Below, one piece after another: positions 5,883 through 25,579 of a DNA stretch of 42,267 nt. Positions within the stretch are counted from its first letter, which is position 1, and each line of letters opens with the position of its first letter. Location of the stretch: IMG/VR virus record IMGVR_UViG_2541047698_000018, one strand, 5' to 3'. The notes beneath the pieces are model-generated. The model saw only the letters and a list, made by a program, of their open reading frames with translations. It was not told where the DNA came from and made no database searches. Position numbers and translations under genes: made by a program. Source of the DNA: a virus (taxonomy: Duplodnaviria; Heunggongvirae; Uroviricota; Caudoviricetes).

Positions 5883-6235
5883 TACGCCTCCGATGTAACA
5901 GTCGTTATTCCATAAAGAGTGTCGATTTCAGCGGAAAACATGACACGTCGGGTCGTGGTATCCACCGTCGTATTGAAAGAGAGGATTGATTTAACGCCCC
6001 GCGTTTCGAGGATGCGCTTACGGATCGCCAGGTTGTAGGTTTCCGGCTTCTGCTTACCGAGCACAGACTGGATCCACGGAGTCCCTTCGGTGATATCGAG
6101 AAACCATTGCCCATACCACAATTCGAATCGCGTTTTTACCGCTTGCGCCACGGCCTCCGGTGAGTTAATCAGCCAGGTGTCATCACCGCTGCCAAAGGTG
6201 TAATCGCCATCGGCGTCTTCACGTCTGTATCGCAT
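5882..6235 (-). CDS. Baseplate protein (Mu gp46-like)
   Basis: 117 aa between spike and J-like genes, translationally coupled. Confidence 0.5.
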   Translation of the reverse strand: MRYRREDADGDYTFGSGDDTWLINSPEAVAQAVKTRFELWYGQWFLDITEGTPWIQSVLGKQKPETYNLAIRKRILETRGVKSILSFNTTVDTTTRRVMFSAEIDTLYGITTVTSEA

Positions 6236-6987
6236 CAGTTTACCCCGTCGGTACTGCTTCCACCGCGCTGAACACCGCCATGAGTGTGCGTATCATCGAT
6301 TGGCTTGCCGTTAGCCTTCACGCTACCCAAAAACTCAACAGCACCAGTGATTTTTGAAGCCACACCAGAAACAACAGACCCCACCATGCCCCCCATCCAG
6401 GTTAACAGGCCATGAATGGTTACTTTCTCAGAAAAATCAGCCAGAGGGGCAACCACATCAAGACCACCCGGGGCGACAATTTTAATTTTCCGGGTATCAG
6501 GATTAAGATCAAAATAGGTGCTGCCGTCGTCACTACGCAACTGTGTGGCACTGGTATTAATACCGCTAATCTTCCTCGCCTGCGACTGGGGACCGACAAT
6601 ACAAAACGCATCCGATAAATCATGCATTCTGTCATCGACCGGCTCCTGTATCCCACCGCTCTGCCACCAGAAATCAATACAACGATCGGCAAAAACGACA
6701 AGACACTCATCCCCGGCTTTAACCGGAAAAGTCAACGTACAGCCTCCGCCGCGCGGAAATACCACAGGCACATCCACCAGCAACGGGTAATTTTTGGTAA
6801 TGCGGTTACCGTCGTTATCCTTTTCAACCGAACGGATAGCTGGCTGCACAACCGCCGTCACCGCGTCGGGATCGAATGACTGAACAATGCCAGGCAAGGC
6901 GACACGGATCTGGTTCTTTGTTGTTTCCCGTTCAGATTTGAATGTTTCGGCAAGGTCGCCGCTGCGGGTCTGGTCAGATACTGCCAT
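6235..6987 (-). CDS. Baseplate spike/assembly protein (V-like)
   Basis: 250 aa, Gly-rich C-terminus; position matches Mu gp45. Confidence 0.5.
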   Translation of the reverse strand: MAVSDQTRSGDLAETFKSERETTKNQIRVALPGIVQSFDPDAVTAVVQPAIRSVEKDNDGNRITKNYPLLVDVPVVFPRGGGCTLTFPVKAGDECLVVFADRCIDFWWQSGGIQEPVDDRMHDLSDAFCIVGPQSQARKISGINTSATQLRSDDGSTYFDLNPDTRKIKIVAPGGLDVVAPLADFSEKVTIHGLLTWMGGMVGSVVSGVASKITGAVEFLGSVKANGKPIDDTHTHGGVQRGGSSTDGVN

Positions 6988-7004
6988 TTAGTAGGCTCCA
7001 GAAA

Positions 7005-7028
7005 GCAAAAAACCCGCCGGGTGGCGGG
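7005..7028 (-). terminator. Rho-independent terminator after membrane-protein moron
   Basis: Stem cccgcc-gggt-ggcggg followed by a U-run on the minus-strand transcript; 19 nt downstream of 7047 stop. Confidence 0.6.
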
Positions 7029-7046
7029 TTCATTATTGAAGTTTCA

Positions 7047-7286
7047 TTACTGCTTGTTTGCTTCTAACGCTTCAGCTATTCGGCGAAGATACTCATTGTT
7101 TTTAAATGAAACCATGATGCACTCAAAGAATATTCGGCAAAATACAGCACATAACAAAAGCACTAAAGCGCCAGCAGCCTTCCCATTAACAAACGTTATA
7201 ATGGCGGCAACAACCAGAAGTAACATTGTGATGCCATACAGAACGTTGATGATTTTTGGAGTTATTAATTTATCAAATCCGAACAT
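7047..7286 (-). CDS. Small inner-membrane protein (moron)
   Basis: 79 aa, two hydrophobic helices; AT-rich; own terminator; inserted between baseplate hub and spike genes. Confidence 0.5.
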   Translation of the reverse strand: MFGFDKLITPKIINVLYGITMLLLVVAAIITFVNGKAAGALVLLLCAVFCRIFFECIMVSFKNNEYLRRIAEALEANKQ

Positions 7287-7339
7287 GCGACAAATTCCTT
7301 ATCGTGAAAGTAGAAGTATCACATTATAATTACGAGTGA

Positions 7340-7681
7340 TTAATCAACAATCTTTTTGCATGGAAAGGAACCGATGATTTTCGGCGCATCCATGCTGTTC
7401 TGCAGCAGTTGGACATTCAGGAATCGCGTTTCGGTACCAGGGCGACGAATGTATTCAAAGCCGTAGTTGTTACCGTCTTTGGCAGGCATAAGCCCCATGT
7501 CTACTTTCAAACCATTGGTACCCAGTTCGGTGATTTTTTGAGAGGTAACTCTTTCACCGTTGATTGTCGATAACTCGCCCTGGTTTGCAACCATAGTGTA
7601 GCCACCGCATTTAACCGTGAAGCCATCCGCCCACGCGCTGCACGCAGAAAAGACAGCTAACAGAAAAATAATACCCCTCAT
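7340..7681 (-). CDS. Secreted/periplasmic protein with signal peptide (moron)
   Basis: 113 aa; N-terminal MRGIIFLLAVFSACSAWA signal-like segment; two Cys (positions 25 and 109). Confidence 0.5.
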   Translation of the reverse strand: MRGIIFLLAVFSACSAWADGFTVKCGGYTMVANQGELSTINGERVTSQKITELGTNGLKVDMGLMPAKDGNNYGFEYIRRPGTETRFLNVQLLQNSMDAPKIIGSFPCKKIVD

Positions 7682-7684
7682 TGC

Positions 7685-8746
7685 TCATCCCCTTTGCAAA
7701 GCCGATTGCGTATACAGATCCGCCGCGCCACGCGCTTCGCACATCATATCCATGTACCACGCCTGGCCCCTTGTGTCGCCAGTGTACATAATCCCGCGTA
7801 CAATATAAACGCCATCCGTTGCGATGCTGGCAGGCTGCGCGGCGGTACCGCTGAGCGTGATATTTCCGTCCGTGTTCTGGTCGGTGATCTGACCACCAGC
7901 CATCGCAATATCGTTGTTCGACAACGCGGTACGATAGACGGAAGCCTGATCCAGCTGAATGAGCCCGTTAACCCGGATGTTCGGATTAATAAGCGCGCGG
8001 ACGTTTACGCCGTTGCCGATGGTCTGCTGCGGCATGCCAATAAGCCCGGTAGCACTGTTGAGCACAATCGCTTCGTGAACATATTCATTAGTCGCCACCA
8101 TCTGGCGCTGACCGTCCACGAATTGCCATGTTGCGCCACATTGCCCGGCTACGTTATCCATTAGATGCCGCGTCATGCCAAAGAGCACCCGCCCCCGGGG
8201 GAATACAGTAGCAGGCATTTCAGGCGTCAGGCCTTCGGTCGCGCCTTTGGCTTCAAAGTCTTTCATCAGCGCACGGTTTACATCAGCGACCGTGTAACCG
8301 GCAGCCAGCGTCTGTGAGGTTATACTGGTGGCAAAAGCCAGATCTGTATCGGCTGCCTGAATCAGGACGTAGGAATCAACCGGACTGTCTTTTCCTGTGA
8401 CCGAGTAGCGAATTTCACCGCTGAAAATCAGTCCGTAGTTGCGACCATCACTCTGGCCCACGTCCGCCGCGTCAACTTCCCGCACTGTCCCGACGTCGCT
8501 TGCCGACACCTCCGGCGCGATACCGTCGTAACCCGCAATCAGACGCACTTTCGAAAACTCCCGCCCGGTGATTCGGTTCACAGTATCTGCCGAGAGGTTA
8601 TAAATTTTGATAGTCCCTACCCGGGACGCGCTGCTGATGTTGAACCAGTCGATCGTAAAGGTGACTTTAAAATCACTTAGCTCAATTCCCTGACCGTTCT
8701 CGTCCACAAGCTGCAGCTCGAAATGTCTCATCCAGTTCTGTGACAT
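7685..8746 (-). CDS. Baseplate hub protein (Mu gp44-like position)
   Basis: 353 aa downstream of tape measure cluster. Confidence 0.5.
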   Translation of the reverse strand: MSQNWMRHFELQLVDENGQGIELSDFKVTFTIDWFNISSASRVGTIKIYNLSADTVNRITGREFSKVRLIAGYDGIAPEVSASDVGTVREVDAADVGQSDGRNYGLIFSGEIRYSVTGKDSPVDSYVLIQAADTDLAFATSITSQTLAAGYTVADVNRALMKDFEAKGATEGLTPEMPATVFPRGRVLFGMTRHLMDNVAGQCGATWQFVDGQRQMVATNEYVHEAIVLNSATGLIGMPQQTIGNGVNVRALINPNIRVNGLIQLDQASVYRTALSNNDIAMAGGQITDQNTDGNITLSGTAAQPASIATDGVYIVRGIMYTGDTRGQAWYMDMMCEARGAADLYTQSALQRG

Positions 8747-8748
8747 AC

Positions 8749-9051
8749 TTACTCCGTTGATACCAGTAAATGGCTGCGACTGCCCAGGTCAGTTTTCGTG
8801 GGATAATCCTGTGTGTTGTCATCGCAGACCACCAACAGCTTAAAACCAAGCCCCATACAGGCGTACTGCGCCAGCAGGTCAGCGCCAGTGACGAGAGGAA
8901 TACCGGAGATTACCGGCTCCCCTCTGTCATTCTGCAGGTCCATAATCCAGTAAAGATCGCGCCATATGATGCTAATCCGCCAAGTGACACCACCCAGGAC
9001 GATGCTGAACTGCTGATTGTCCGCTGTCAGCGGAATTTCCTGAATTGTCAT
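8749..9051 (-). CDS. Tail protein (small)
   Basis: 100 aa, translationally coupled within tail operon. Confidence 0.4.
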   Translation of the reverse strand: MTIQEIPLTADNQQFSIVLGGVTWRISIIWRDLYWIMDLQNDRGEPVISGIPLVTGADLLAQYACMGLGFKLLVVCDDNTQDYPTKTDLGSRSHLLVSTE

Positions 9052-9638
9052 TATCCGCCTCCCAGTAATGACTCCACGTTACCCGTGATGCTTTTCAGCA
9101 GTGAAGTATCTGGAGGCTTTGTGGTTTTGTTGCCGCTATTCTGTACCGCCGACGTGCTGACCCCTTCCTTCATGTTGGTTTTATCCGCGACGGTAATCTG
9201 CTGTGTCCGGGAGATAAGGACCTCCCTCAGGGTGAGGACGGCGGACAGGACGTTTTCGGTTGTCTTGTCCGTCGTCACTTCCAGCGCCCGGATCAACATG
9301 TTGCTGTACAGTCGTTTACCGGTTACCACATCGAAGGGGATACGGCTTTCCTGCAGATCCAGTAGCTCCTGATACGTCTGCTGAGGACTCAGGCCGAGCA
9401 GGCTGGTAGCCGTCAGATTACTGGCAAAATCCAGCAATGCGCCGCCACCGGCGAAACCAACCTCCATCACCACTTCTGACGGTTTTTTATAGGCATGATC
9501 AGCGACAGCGGCCCCAACCTCTACCGGATGCTCTGTTATTTCAAGCATATCTGTATGCTTCTCTGAAATAACAACACTGGGAACAATCATTCCTATTTTT
9601 CTGCTCTGCTGATGAAAAAGTGTAGAGAGAATATCCAC
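9051..9638 (-). CDS. Tail protein (DNA-circulation/gp43-like position)
   Basis: 195 aa directly after tape measure gene. Confidence 0.4.
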   Translation of the reverse strand: MDILSTLFHQQSRKIGMIVPSVVISEKHTDMLEITEHPVEVGAAVADHAYKKPSEVVMEVGFAGGGALLDFASNLTATSLLGLSPQQTYQELLDLQESRIPFDVVTGKRLYSNMLIRALEVTTDKTTENVLSAVLTLREVLISRTQQITVADKTNMKEGVSTSAVQNSGNKTTKPPDTSLLKSITGNVESLLGGG

Positions 9639-11626
9639 TAACCCACCCTCACCTGATTACTTCGCATGACCTGAGCATTTGCAGACTGTTGCCGACGTGC
9701 AACCTCATTACCGACAGCGTGCGGATCTCCGCCACCGTAAATGTGGTAGGTATTTTGCTGGTTAACCTCTGTCACTTTGCCACTAATTCCCGCCACGGCA
9801 GCCTTATTAATCAGCTCTCGGGAATAGATATTTCTTCCATTCTCATGCTGGATAATGCTGCTCATCAATGCTGACATGGTTTGCAGATCGCTCATATTCA
9901 GGGCAGCCCGGGGATCCACTCCCAGTCGTTGCGATACAGCATTGATATACGCAGTTGTGTTGTTATTATCAGAGGCAGGTGCCCAGGTAGAGATAATTTT
10001 TTCCACACTGTTTATTCCTCGCCCGGCGTACAACATTAACTGACGAGCAAGAGCCCGTAATCCATCAAAGGCAGTTTCAAATCTGGCAAATCGCCCGCCC
10101 GGGTGTTCAAGAGAAGCCCCCGCCTGACCAGCAAAATTAAGGTTTCCCGGATTGTTATTCCGCTCTCCTCGTTTCGTAGCCTGTGCATGTTGTTCCGGCT
10201 CATCATCACCAAACCAGCCGCGTACCGTCCGGCCCACACTGCGGGGATCGAATCCCCAGTGCTCTTTAATCCAGTCGGCAGTACTGTTAGCGCTGTCTGT
10301 AACCATCGGCATCGCTGACGGATTTTCGCTGCCCTGATTAAGTATCTGTTTGCCGATGCTGACGGCATCAGCCCAGCGTCCATCTTTGATAGCGTTGAGC
10401 AGGTCGGCGATCATGTTCAGCATTTTGCTGAATTCGCCCATCTGGTCGATGAAGTTGCTGAAATCCCACTTCAGGGACCATGATTTGGGGTCAATATTGA
10501 GTAGTTTCGCCAGCGCTTTCGCCAGGTCGTTAACGGTCGTTTTAAGGTCACGAACCATCTTCAGCGCGGCATCGACCTCCGGTTTCCACTTGCCCCAGTC
10601 AATCAGGCTGTCGCCGCCTTCCTTCCAGGTCTGATAGTCCTCCCACAGGAGGGCAATCCCCGCCGCCAGCGCGGTAATGAGGCCAACCGGCGACATCCAG
10701 AACGTACTGTTCAGAATGCGCAGCGCAATCGTCAGTGCGCCAAACAGCGAGATCAACTCCCGCGTTTGCTTATCCAGCGATTGCCACCAGGTGATAAGGC
10801 CTGATGTCCCCTCAATCAGTCTGAAGAACAGCCGCCCGATAATATCCCCGAGCGCCAGAATGCCTTTTATGGCTTTCGTCAGGGTCTGCTCGATACGAGG
10901 GAAGTTGTCCAGGATATGGCGGCGCAGGGTGTCCAGCGAACCTGCAAGCCCACCCGCAAGATTAGAGCCGATTTTGTCACGGGCCATGCCTGCCATCGCG
11001 CTAAACTCACGCAGGGAGGTCATAAATTTGTTGGAGCTTCTGGCCGCCTCGTCAGCATTGAAGCCGATAGCTTTCGCCATTGCGCTGTACTGCCCGGAGA
11101 AGCCACCCACACCCCGGCGCATCGCCATAAGGGTATTTTCGTCAATGCCCAGCATCTGCGCATACTGGTTAGCCCGGTAATACGGCATGCCGCTGAGCTT
11201 CTGGCCTACACCTGTAAAAATAGCGGCCATGTCACGCATGTTACCGCTGGCATCCCGTGTCTGTACCCCCAGACGATTCAGAAATCCCTCAGCCCCGGGG
11301 TTATTACGGATAAACCGGGAGAGGCTTTCCAGAGAAGATTGCGCAGCGTCCACGCTGCCGCCAACCTGCGAAACCGCATAGCCAATAGACTGAATTCCCT
11401 GGGCTGTCGCGCCGGTGCGCTGTGACGCCCAGTAAAGATTATCCAGGCCGGAGGCGATCTTAGCCGTGAAGGCCACCACGGACAGCGCAGCTCCTTCAAC
11501 AGCCAGCCCCATTTTGATGACATTTGCAGTTGTACCGGCGAGGACAGAACCGAACTTTTTCGCTCCTGCATCATCCACACTGAAGCCAAGCGAGACGAGG
11601 AAATCTTTAATAGTTTCAGCGTTCAT
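9638..11626 (-). CDS. Tail tape measure protein
   Basis: About 660 aa, Ala/Gly-rich with hydrophobic central segment; follows chaperone; start MNAETIKDF at 11626 preceded by GAGAGG. Confidence 0.75.
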   Translation of the reverse strand: MNAETIKDFLVSLGFSVDDAGAKKFGSVLAGTTANVIKMGLAVEGAALSVVAFTAKIASGLDNLYWASQRTGATAQGIQSIGYAVSQVGGSVDAAQSSLESLSRFIRNNPGAEGFLNRLGVQTRDASGNMRDMAAIFTGVGQKLSGMPYYRANQYAQMLGIDENTLMAMRRGVGGFSGQYSAMAKAIGFNADEAARSSNKFMTSLREFSAMAGMARDKIGSNLAGGLAGSLDTLRRHILDNFPRIEQTLTKAIKGILALGDIIGRLFFRLIEGTSGLITWWQSLDKQTRELISLFGALTIALRILNSTFWMSPVGLITALAAGIALLWEDYQTWKEGGDSLIDWGKWKPEVDAALKMVRDLKTTVNDLAKALAKLLNIDPKSWSLKWDFSNFIDQMGEFSKMLNMIADLLNAIKDGRWADAVSIGKQILNQGSENPSAMPMVTDSANSTADWIKEHWGFDPRSVGRTVRGWFGDDEPEQHAQATKRGERNNNPGNLNFAGQAGASLEHPGGRFARFETAFDGLRALARQLMLYAGRGINSVEKIISTWAPASDNNNTTAYINAVSQRLGVDPRAALNMSDLQTMSALMSSIIQHENGRNIYSRELINKAAVAGISGKVTEVNQQNTYHIYGGGDPHAVGNEVARRQQSANAQVMRSNQVRVG

Positions 11627-11649
11627 TATCCTCTCTCCATTTCTCAATG

Positions 11650-23009: not shown

Positions 23010-23534
23010 TTACCGGGACTGTTCTATTTGTCGGACACCAGCCAACTGGTTATTCGCCTTCTCGATGGCTGCCAACAGTGGGTTAATCCACAGAACAGCC
23101 TGGCAATATGTCAACGTTCTGGTGGTAGTGGCACGATCACCGGCTGAGTCAATGTCCCCGGAATCGGCGTGCAATGCGCTGGCGCGTAAACGGTTCGCGT
23201 AGTTGAGCAACCCGACAGCAATATCAACAGGAACAGGAAAATCACAGTTCTTTTCACGGAGCAGAACCTCACGGTATTTGATGACTGTCTTCTCGTGACC
23301 GATGTCGACCAGAGAATTTAATCGGCTTGCGTTTTCTGCTATCTGGTTAAAACGATTGAAGTTTAATGCCTGATTAGCTATCACTTTCCCTTGATATTCA
23401 GCTTCACCTTCCGCTTTATCAGCCCGCAACTTTTCTGCCTGATACTTGCTGTGGTAATGGTTTGCAGACCAGACGAGCGCCCCAAAGGCAGAGAAGAAAA
23501 ATGCCGCGATGACAATCTTATAAGTCAGCTTCAT
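23010..23534 (-). CDS. Rz: Rz-like i-spanin
   Basis: 174 aa; N-terminal TM helix then WSANHY (lambda Rz has WAVNHY) and coiled-coil; last gene of lysis cassette. Confidence 0.7.
   Translation of the reverse strand: MKLTYKIVIAAFFFSAFGALVWSANHYHSKYQAEKLRADKAEGEAEYQGKVIANQALNFNRFNQIAENASRLNSLVDIGHEKTVIKYREVLLREKNCDFPVPVDIAVGLLNYANRLRASALHADSGDIDSAGDRATTTRTLTYCQAVLWINPLLAAIEKANNQLAGVRQIEQSR
23111..23257 (-). CDS. Rz1: Rz1-like o-spanin lipoprotein embedded in +1 frame of Rz
   Basis: GTG-initiated 48 codons: VKRTVIFLFLLILLSGC lipobox then Pro-rich STTRTVYAPAHCTPIPGTLTQPVIVPLPPER; GAGG 9 nt upstream. Confidence 0.5.
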   Translation of the reverse strand: MKRTVIFLFLLILLSGCSTTRTVYAPAHCTPIPGTLTQPVIVPLPPER

Positions 23535-23994
23535 TTACCACCCCACCAGCATCTTTAAACCTGGAAATCAGGTCACCGATTTTATGTTCATACTGACCGT
23601 AACCTGCACCAGGTAACGACGCCCAGATATTGCTGCAACGGTCGATTGCCTGACGAATATCGCCACGGTCAATCATCGGTAAAGCGCCACGCTCTTTAAT
23701 CTGCTGCAGCGCCACAGCGTCCTGACTTTCTGGCGAAAAATCTTTCAGGCCAAGCTGCTTGCGGTAGGCATCCCACCAGCGTGAAAGAAGCTGATACCGG
23801 CCTGCGGCTGTTGATTTAAGCTTCGGGTTTAGCGTGACAAGTCTGCGAGGGTGATCGGAGTAATCAGTGAACAGTTCACCACCGACAATAACATCATAAC
23901 CGTGGTTACGTGTCGGTTGTCGCCCGTTATCCGTTCCTTCTGACCATGCCACCATATCCAGGAAAGCTTTACGTTGGGAATTTAGTGTCTGCAT
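23518..23994 (-). CDS. R: Endolysin (lambda R-type lytic transglycosylase)
   Basis: 158 aa, nearly collinear with lambda R as recalled (NSQRKAFLDMVAWSEGTDNGRQ...). Confidence 0.9.
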   Translation of the reverse strand: MQTLNSQRKAFLDMVAWSEGTDNGRQPTRNHGYDVIVGGELFTDYSDHPRRLVTLNPKLKSTAAGRYQLLSRWWDAYRKQLGLKDFSPESQDAVALQQIKERGALPMIDRGDIRQAIDRCSNIWASLPGAGYGQYEHKIGDLISRFKDAGGVVNEADL

Positions 23995-23997
23995 GAA

Positions 23998-24357
23998 TTA
24001 CTCCTTAGAGCCACCAAACTTGTTACCGATTACTCGCATTGCAGCCCCACGAATAGCATCGACACCGATCAGCCCAACACCACCACCAATGGCAACAGAA
24101 AGCGATTTAGGCCATCCAACATACTCAAGAGCGGATGCAAAGGTCAGCGTCAGAGCACCACAGAGCAAAATCTCAAGCGTTTTTCGTTTCCAGCCGCCGC
24201 CACCGCCAAAATAGGCAATGCGCAAGCCAGCCATAACAATTGACATAACCACTGCGCCCAACGGCGTATCTCCACGCCACCAACTTTGTAAGAGTTCCAG
24301 TAAGTCAGGCCAGGAATGAGGAGCATTGTGCATTTTCATACTTCCCACCTCCGCCAT
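23998..24357 (-). CDS. Holin (dual-start motif)
   Basis: 119 aa, three predicted TM helices; N-terminal MAEVGSMKM suggests antiholin/holin dual start; directly before endolysin. Confidence 0.7.
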   Translation of the reverse strand: MAEVGSMKMHNAPHSWPDLLELLQSWWRGDTPLGAVVMSIVMAGLRIAYFGGGGGWKRKTLEILLCGALTLTFASALEYVGWPKSLSVAIGGGVGLIGVDAIRGAAMRVIGNKFGGSKE

Positions 24358-25156: not shown

Positions 25157-25579
25157 TTATGCCGCCGAGCAGCTCCTACGCAAAGTCCTGATAGTCTGAG
25201 GCTTTGACTGAACCGACTGATCCATTTCGAGCACCACATCCAGCATGGCTAAGCAACCGTCAATAAATCCCTCTGCCGCCTGAAGCCTCTTCAGAACGTG
25301 GGTGTGAGATACGCCGAGCTTCTCACCCATCGCCCGCACGGGCATGGCCTGGACGTAATGCCACTCAAGGAGCGTGCACAGATACGGATCTTTTTTCTTC
25401 AGGCAGCTCATAGCGGAGTTGATGATAAGACCGTCATTGTCACTGCATTTCAGCCTTCCAGACTGCGTCGCGGGTAGCAGATTCTTAAACCCGGCTGCAA
25501 CAGGAGGAAAGTAGACGCTACCACCTTCACTCGCAGCCCAGCCCCCCCAGCGCTCTAAAACCTGTTGAATATTACGCAT
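25157..25579 (-). CDS. Late antiterminator Q (QuuD-like)
   Basis: 140 aa; MRNIQQVLERWGGWAA...AAGFKNL...KRLQAAEGFIDGCLAMLDVVLEMD matches DLP12 QuuD as recalled. Confidence 0.8.
   Translation of the reverse strand: MRNIQQVLERWGGWAASEGGSVYFPPVAAGFKNLLPATQSGRLKCSDNDGLIINSAMSCLKKKDPYLCTLLEWHYVQAMPVRAMGEKLGVSHTHVLKRLQAAEGFIDGCLAMLDVVLEMDQSVQSKPQTIRTLRRSCSAA

Follow-up and report, generated by a model that had tools for sequence, protein, structure and literature searches.

Exported or membrane proteins that are not part of the virion are encoded in or beside the late operons of several phages, among them lambda (lom and bor), phi80 and N15 (Cor) and T5 (Llp), and of these Cor and Llp are lipoproteins that act in superinfection exclusion. 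The founding moron, gp15 of HK97, has a proven role in superinfection exclusion, exerted at the inner membrane (PMC3594210, summarising Juhala et al. 2000; Cumby et al. 2012), and antiviral hotspots have been described in P2-like phages and P4-like satellites (Rousset et al. 2022, PMC9122126). Here we analyse the DNA of a virus of the class Caudoviricetes (IMG/VR record IMGVR_UViG_2541047698_000018; 42,267 nucleotides (nt), the whole of which is called 'the window' below), in which two open reading frames (ORFs) of 113 and 79 amino acids (aa), p113 and p79, lie on the minus strand between the baseplate hub gene and the baseplate spike gene. The reading that we favour, with moderate confidence, is that the two ORFs occupy a conserved accessory-gene slot in the baseplate operon of a SEN34-like prophage of E. 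coli, and that exclusion at the cell envelope is included in the function of this slot. SEN34-like prophages combine a myovirus tail with lambda-like regulation, and the replication and regulation genes of Salmonella phage SEN34 itself are lambda-like (PMC5261728). The slot is ordered as follows: hub gene, the lineage-kept gene of the predicted exported beta-barrel p113, AT-rich cargo that can be refilled, an intrinsic terminator that is part of the backbone, and spike gene.

Two ORFs inserted between the hub and spike genes

Every gene in this part of the window is on the minus strand. The upstream anchor of the slot, the 353-aa hub gene (8746..7685), matches phrog_196 'baseplate hub' (5.7e-89) and, weakly and under the family cut-off, Pfam E217_GP41 (1.8e-4). 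The downstream anchor, the 250-aa baseplate central spike gene (6987..6235), encodes the Pfam spike N-terminal domain PF18352 (1.7e-44) together with a GpV Apex motif, and bears the RefSeq name 'membrane-puncturing spike protein'. Between these anchors lie the p113 gene (7681..7340), a gap of 53 nt (7339..7287), the p79 gene (7286..7047) and an intrinsic terminator made of a hairpin and a T-run (7031..7000), which forms the downstream boundary of the slot. The GC content is 0.55 in the hub gene and 0.52 in the spike gene, as opposed to 0.47 in the p113 gene and 0.38 in the stretch from the p113 gene to the spike gene (0.36 with the terminator excluded). A first-pass annotation of this DNA had described an AT-rich ORF pair that interrupts the baseplate gene series and ends at a strong terminator, and the coordinates, the base composition, the hub and spike matches and the hairpin with its T-run bear out this description.

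The gene series agrees with that of Pam3, the closest minimal myophage. In Pam3, which is structurally solved, the genes for the tube initiator gp17, the plug gp18, the hub gp19 and the spike gp20 are consecutive, with nothing between them, and the solved baseplate has six components only (PMC9942802). The hub and spike genes of Edwardsiella phage GF-2 are contiguous as well. E217 has gp41 as its hub and gp43 as its tip, so that gp42 falls between them by gene number, and the structure paper is silent on gp42 (PMC10329688). Neither the six-component baseplate of Pam3 nor the baseplate list of E217 holds a counterpart of p113 or p79, and a literature search returned no virion proteomics for this phage group. 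Since the series from hub to spike is gapless in Pam3 and GF-2, both ORFs are insertions into the structural series, for which the solved baseplates of this type offer no place.

Cargo turnover and the conserved terminator

The region has matches in 292 of 5426 complete E. coli genomes, and only 41 of these 292 carry the full arrangement. In E. coli E62 (NZ_CP022393) the sequence is 100% identical here. At the position of p79, relatives carry unrelated genes of 119-408 aa (loci are designated by L numbers and proteins by P numbers where a label is needed). Four isolated phages, Yersinia YP3, E. coli 689R2, Salmonella SEN34 and Klebsiella Mulock, encode a p113 homolog (55-98% identical) directly after the hub, and the gene that follows it is different in each: a 266-aa protein in YP3, a 170-173-aa protein in 689R2 (and in L022), a 138-aa membrane protein in SEN34 (and in L010) and a 148-aa Cys-rich membrane protein in Mulock. 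Other loci hold a 192-aa protein with a YafO toxin (Pfam, 4e-17; L006 and L007, with similar cargo in L012 and L023), gene pairs of 257 and 131 aa (L008), 243 and 142 aa (L016, L020) or 186 and 65 aa (L013), a 245-aa exported tRNA_anti-like protein (L015, L019 and L024, and a disrupted copy in L025) or exported proteins of 119-122 aa (L017, L018). In Dryocola clanedunensis (L011:4095-5321) the cargo is the 408-aa defence protein PD-Lambda-1, which has a T5orf172 domain and was the sole match (1.4e-82) in a PADLOC scan of 14 cargo proteins. More than ten cargo types were found in all, and the locus has the conserved flanks, the variable content and the known defence genes among that content by which hotspots are recognised. 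Base composition declines in the same order across loci, from 0.45-0.61 GC in the hub gene (at least 0.51 in all but one) to 0.40-0.50 in p113 and 0.35-0.46 in the cargo.

The same p113 allele is found with different cargo when the window is compared with L007, or L002 with L008. In E. coli 30EVA2 (L005:4348-4766) a remnant of the 3' end of a window-type p113 gene (62% identical over residues 66-113) precedes a DUF4282 cassette, DUF4282 being the family of p79, and the resident p113 homolog beside this remnant is only 27% identical. This scar indicates that cargo is exchanged through recombination at two places, the 3' end of p113 and the terminator.

The terminator stem (7031..7010) consists of nine pairs, six of them G-C, with a 4-nt loop (GAACCCGCC-ACCC-GGCGGGTTT) and is followed by TTTGCTTTCT; the terminator abuts the ribosome-binding site (RBS) of the spike gene, GGAG (6996..6999). 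It folds with -18.6 kcal/mol (z = -3.2 against shuffles). A generic terminator scan of the region returned three sites versus 3.8 in shuffles, which is no excess, and it is the conservation across loci that marks the terminator as more than a chance hairpin. A G+C-rich hairpin with a T-run indeed lies 15-25 nt 5' of the spike ATG in 30 of 31 loci, irrespective of the cargo, and is near-identical in most of them (AACCCGCC-ACCC-GGCGGGTTTTTTGCTTTCTGGAGCC); YP3 has only a weaker hairpin. It is also present in L014, where the slot contains only extra p113 paralogs, and sequence similarity between loci starts exactly at the hairpin. At four of eight hairpin pairs both sides have changed in at least one sequence, for example to CCCAC/GTGGG (Mulock) or GGCCGC/GTGGCC (L025). 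On this pattern we regard the terminator as belonging to the backbone of the slot and not to a particular cargo; the idea that the ORF pair brought its own terminator is contradicted by the near-identical hairpin that precedes the spike whatever the cargo.

The terminator and RBS that follow the DUF4282 gene in sipho-type K. pneumoniae prophages (L028:4243-4290) read ACCCGCTCCGGCGGGTTTTTTATGCCCGGAGG. A SEN34-like prophage of Raoultella (L017) has almost this sequence as its slot terminator, some 40 nt 5' of the spike ATG. Terminators may act as common recombination anchors between unrelated tail operons.

p79, a DUF4282 membrane protein

The p79 protein matches Pfam PF14110 (DUF4282) over residues 2-71 (1.2e-10, 42.2 bits at a cut-off of 27) and phrog_12129 (8e-48), and carries the RefSeq name 'DUF4282 domain-containing protein'; a literature search for DUF4282 found no publication. 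It consists of two hydrophobic helices joined by a loop of three to four residues. In the family alignment an N-terminal LITP-I motif is invariant and its flanking residues nearly so, R51, F54 and E55 in helix 2 are invariant, and so is a C-terminal FKNNEYL-R-I tail. Because of the positive-inside rule, we infer that p79 resides in the inner membrane with both ends, and with them its conserved parts, in the cytoplasm. Both products of the slot can be called envelope-targeted, as the first-pass annotation had them, with the qualification that the conserved parts of p79 are predicted to face the cytoplasm.

DUF4282 genes recur in three other phage contexts. Pectobacterium carries one in the same slot; in the sipho-type K. 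pneumoniae prophages, as in the Edwardsiella myophage GF-2, the gene comes straight after that for the tape-measure protein; and in Pantoea it follows the lysis cassette. An intrinsic terminator lies 3' of the gene in each context. An AT-rich gap with -10-like hexamers lies 5' of it in all but GF-2, whose DUF4282 gene adjoins the tape-measure gene without such a gap. As an extra gene of deviating base composition with a terminator 3' of it (in this lineage the terminator that closes the slot for any cargo), p79 has three of the attributes in the Hendrix/Juhala definition, and we class it on these features as a classical moron and the swappable cargo gene of the slot; a promoter of its own is a candidate only (see below).

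The GF-2 locus (L045:4501-6816), in which the abutting tape-measure gene is annotated 'lytic tail protein', has an Arc-like repressor/Ant module after the DUF4282 homolog, in the middle of the tail operon and before the Dit-like, plug, hub and spike genes.

p113, a predicted exported beta-barrel protein

The ATG of p113 lies 3 nt beyond the hub stop codon and its RBS (GGGGA) lies within the end of the hub gene; in L037 the p113 start codon overlaps the hub stop. The first 19 codons (7625..7681) encode a predicted Sec signal peptide, MRGIIFLLAVFSACSAWA followed by DG, with an AxA cleavage site: a positive n-region (MRG), a hydrophobic h-region (IIFLLAVFSA) and a small-x-small site (CSAWA before DG), as read by inspection of the sequence and its homologs. 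Nearly all family members have such an N-terminal hydrophobic leader and small-x-small site, the leader sequence itself being variable, and p113 is accordingly predicted to be Sec-exported as a substrate of signal peptidase I. The first-pass annotation had suggested a check for both a signal peptide and a lipobox. Against the pattern [LVI][ASTVI][GAS]C the leader offers FSAC, with an atypical -3 residue, and because Cys14 is missing in most homologs a lipobox in p113 is unlikely; the only family member with a clear one (LSGC) is P0145, a 292-aa fusion that carries the p113 domain at its C-terminus.

The mature domain is strongly conserved, with Cys25 and Cys108 invariant. An AlphaFold model built on a diverse alignment (pLDDT 86, and above 90 in the mature part) has eight antiparallel strands, and the mature part is modelled as a small 8-stranded beta-barrel with the Cys25/Cys108 pair. 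Searches of Pfam and NCBIfam with p113 gave no match, PHROG gave no functional match and a viral structure library gave nothing below E 0.001. An alignment profile run against 1.84 billion representatives returned only 40 hits, among which giant proteins (4267 aa and the like) were discarded as summed repeat matches of about 5 bits. As for a lysozyme inhibitor of the PliC/MliC type, p113 has neither membership in that sequence family nor a specific match to that fold.

A p113 homolog occupies the same position in about 30 loci (from E. coli genomes, 19 species-representative genomes and further contigs) that span many Enterobacterales genera, and the family is carried by 19 phage records. The hub gene lies 5' of the homolog in 25 of 27 surveyed loci, and likewise in further loci; P0144 (27% identical) and P0145 are also at this position. 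The homolog is absent only from far more distant tails such as those of Pam3 and GF-2. On this distribution p113 is best described as an old exported accessory gene fixed in the lineage, not a recent add-on. The first-pass annotation had seen a pair of morons. The two are not an acquired pair: the term holds for p79, which unrelated genes replace in close relatives and which recurs in unrelated phage contexts, and fails for p113, which every relative examined has kept (down to 27% identity) in tight coupling to the hub gene; p113 is neither an extra gene nor one with an evident promoter of its own.

p113 diverges faster than its structural neighbours: for pairs with a hub identity above 0.9, the mean identity of p113 is 0.77 versus 0.88-0.97 for Dit, plug, spike and gpW. 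In Pseudescherichia vulneris NBRC 102420 (L014:629-2849) three to four tandem p113 paralogs (124, 106 (truncated), 117 and 117 aa) alternate with duplicated pieces of the hub 3' end, and this array-like amplification takes the place of unrelated cargo. One family member, P0158 (118 aa, with a signal peptide; L040:5001-5357, a metagenome contig), lies in a chromosomal, non-phage neighbourhood, cls-yciY-[gene]-yciI-ompW, a position that we take to correspond roughly to the kch site of E. coli K-12.

In SEN34 (L003:2434-2775, NC_028699) the p113 homolog is annotated as a 77-aa protein without the leader. Because tblastn aligns the full frame of 113 residues, the annotated start is probably too far downstream.

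Proposed expression and function

The 53-nt gap is a candidate promoter region for p79: it contains TATAAT (7323..7328, minus strand), 37 nt upstream of the p79 ATG, as well as the p79 RBS AAGGAA (7295..7300, minus strand), and the same gap accompanies the DUF4282 gene in L005. The window also encodes a Q-like antitermination protein (25157..25579, minus strand; phrog_79 'anti-termination protein Q-like', 1.5e-38), whose gene precedes those for lysis and structure and shares their strand. In a lysogen, ordinary RNA polymerase that starts in or before the cargo would halt at the terminator, so that the spike, wedge and fibre genes would stay silent, and in lytic growth Q-modified polymerase would pass it. 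We envisage that the late transcript, at least, yields p113, which Sec would then export to be oxidised in the periplasm, and that p79 enters the inner membrane and keeps its two ends on the cytoplasmic side, both proteins then acting at the cell envelope to exclude other phages. In light of the analogy with gp15, and of the repeated occurrence of DUF4282 genes beside tape-measure genes, it is a serious though minority possibility that p79 acts as HK97 gp15 does and prevents, at the inner membrane, the formation of a channel or the entry of DNA. For p113 we suggest, tentatively, that it binds or inhibits, in the periplasm, either a part of an incoming phage or a component of the host envelope. 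More speculative, and to our minds doubtful, is the wider proposal that the p113 family is an undescribed class of periplasmic immunity or superinfection-exclusion proteins, anchored to the SEN34-like hub gene and binding incoming tail parts (the lytic domain of the tape-measure protein, the spike tip) or a needed host factor, with the terminator doubling as recombination anchor for cargo exchange. If it were true, the allelic turnover of p113 and the L014 arrays would be the signature of an arms race, comparable to arrays of orphan immunity genes.

Several observations weigh against the slot as a site of envelope exclusion in lysogens. The TATAAT that the first-pass annotation had pointed out is present in the gap, but its best -35 element is poor (TTGTTG, three of six positions, 16-nt spacer), the consensus promoter scan made no call there, and the hexamer alone is not significant, since the window contains 17 copies against 18.4 expected. 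Several cargo genes in relatives begin a few bases past the p113 stop and leave no room for a promoter. The consensus scan found no promoter-like site on the minus strand upstream of p113, so that this protein may be made late in infection only, which would fit the protection of a lysogen less well; in a promoter scan over 22 loci no positionally conserved promoter preceded p113 and the hits in AT-rich cargo were at chance level. A weak or non-sigma-70 promoter for p113 is possible. At the protein level, neither p113 nor p79 matches a PADLOC defence model, a sequence comparison of p79 with HK97 gp15 found no similarity, and fold searches with p113 models of pLDDT 67 and 86 led only to the generic class of 8-stranded barrels. 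Over 14 loci, a comparison of the variation of p113 with that of the tape-measure C-terminus, Dit, plug, hub, spike and gpW showed linkage to the hub only and gave no signal of co-evolution pointing to a target.

Three other explanations were weighed. The two ORFs could form one recent moron cassette, with a promoter, two genes and its own terminator, that serves lysogenic conversion (virulence, serum or lysozyme resistance). Both genes are indeed AT-rich compared with their flanks, both products are envelope-bound and a terminator follows them; moreover, p113 and cargo are replaced together between some otherwise near-identical phages, 689R2 being 96% identical in the hub and 98% in the spike and only 55% in p113. 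A single cassette is however difficult to reconcile with a p113 gene that all relatives carry here in coupling to the hub gene (across a 3-nt gap in the window, by an overlap in L037), with the association of one p113 allele with different cargo, and with a terminator common to all cargo types, and the sole promoter-like element lies between the two genes and not before them. We consider this explanation quite unlikely.

It is more improbable still that p113 serves the tail, whether in its assembly or as a minor part of the virion that the baseplate or spike needs in order to function, and that only p79 is an add-on. The strict position of p113 beside the hub over deep divergence, with translational coupling and no promoter of its own found, speaks for such a role, as does the pairwise identity of p113, which follows that of the hub (rho 0.81) and Dit (0.72) better than that of the spike (0.32) or the tape-measure C-terminus (0.22), values that come from 14 loci only. 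Variation that tracks the hub is, though, what physical linkage alone leads one to expect, and p113 diverges faster than the structural genes. The conserved signal peptide, with its predicted cleavage site, and the cysteine pair indicate a periplasmic protein, and the cytoplasm is where tails are built; Pam3 has a complete baseplate that includes no protein of this sort, and in GF-2 nothing separates hub from spike. Together with the lipoprotein fusion P0145, the chromosomal non-phage homolog and the tandem arrays, these features argue against a role of p113 in the virion or its assembly. Finally, p79 could be a small membrane-active toxin, abortive-infection effector or modulator of lysis or stress that depolarises the inner membrane when triggered. 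Sister cargo includes the YafO toxin pair and PD-Lambda-1, and the invariant charged residues R51 and E55 in helix 2 together with the invariant cytoplasmic tail suggest a cytoplasmic partner or trigger. We nonetheless hold this to be unlikely, p79 being a single gene here, with no evident partner or antitoxin and no PADLOC match, in a window that has a complete set of holin, endolysin and spanin genes elsewhere, and the placement of DUF4282 genes after the tape-measure gene in two unrelated tail types fits exclusion at entry equally well or better.

Neighbouring genes and other sequence features

Upstream of the hub gene, and likewise on the minus strand, the tail operon comprises the genes for the tape-measure protein (11647..9638), a Dit-like tube initiator (9638..9051; Pfam Dit_like, 1.5e-33) and the plug (9051..8749; Pam3_gp18, 9e-25). 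Below position 6235, the spike gene is followed on the same strand by a gpW-like gene (sheath-initiator family), J-like and I-like wedge genes and then the fibre. The tape-measure protein (9638..11647) has an NNPGN-containing region in its C-terminal third, which is the most variable tail segment among relatives (mean pairwise identity 0.45); RefSeq names its homologs 'lytic transglycosylase', and Pfam SLT matches the homolog in L041.

The holin, endolysin and Rz-like genes (24357..23010) make up a complete lysis cassette, in view of which a spanin or lysis role was rejected. Two further features overlap the p79 gene: an antisense ORF of 102 aa (7021..7329, plus strand), which we treat as spurious, and a weak terminator-like hairpin inside the gene (7159..7172, minus strand). 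Both look like chance products of AT-rich sequence. An Rfam scan of 6800..7900 gave a single sub-threshold match, to a eukaryotic snoRNA, which was taken as chance.

Significance and comparison with known systems

If the reading of the locus as a conserved accessory-gene slot holds, SEN34-like prophages, which are common and have relatives in Klebsiella, Salmonella, Citrobacter, Pantoea and Pectobacterium, carry a defined point of exchange for defence and envelope genes within their baseplate operon. Its signature (hub, exported barrel, cargo, terminator, spike) is computable, and the slot would be easy to find by computer because the exported-protein gene at one end can be recognised and the terminator at the other hardly varies. 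As most of the cargo is without known function, the slot would be a practical source from which to harvest candidate anti-phage genes. The DUF4282 protein and the p113 barrel offer two small, tractable proteins for tests of superinfection exclusion.

The SEN34 paper (PMC5261728) contains nothing on this region, and nor, as far as titles and abstracts tell, do ten of the 17 papers that mention Brunovirus. The tail-assembly-interference system Tai was considered and set aside as not relevant to this locus. Among the closest known systems for p113 are small periplasmic beta-barrels, namely PliC/MliC, PhiA and immunity proteins of the type VI secretion system. Comparison of p113 and p79 with lom, bor, Cor and Llp detects no homology, and p113 has no conserved lipobox, unlike the lipoproteins Cor and Llp.

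The resemblance of p79 to HK97 gp15 is one of arrangement: in both cases an AT-rich gene for a small inner-membrane protein lies in the tail operon of a phage with lambda-like regulation, and an intrinsic terminator directly 3' of it abuts the RBS of the next tail gene. The proteins themselves differ, in that gp15 is of the YebO type, measures 62 aa and has a single hydrophobic segment and p79 is a DUF4282 protein with two, and so do the sites, which lie before the tape-measure gene in HK97 and between hub and spike here; exclusion has been demonstrated for gp15, whereas for p79 we propose it by analogy. With the antiviral hotspots of P2-like phages and P4-like satellites (PMC9122126), the slot has in common a fixed position beside core genes, a content that varies among close relatives and the presence of known defence genes. 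It differs in its phage lineage, in its site inside a baseplate operon and in its flanks, which are a conserved exported-protein gene and an equally fixed terminator, and most of its cargo is without a match to defence models. Taken together, these comparisons leave the general picture of morons and prophage hotspots unchanged: the slot is a prophage accessory and defence hotspot made of moron-type cassettes, and as such is of a kind already known.

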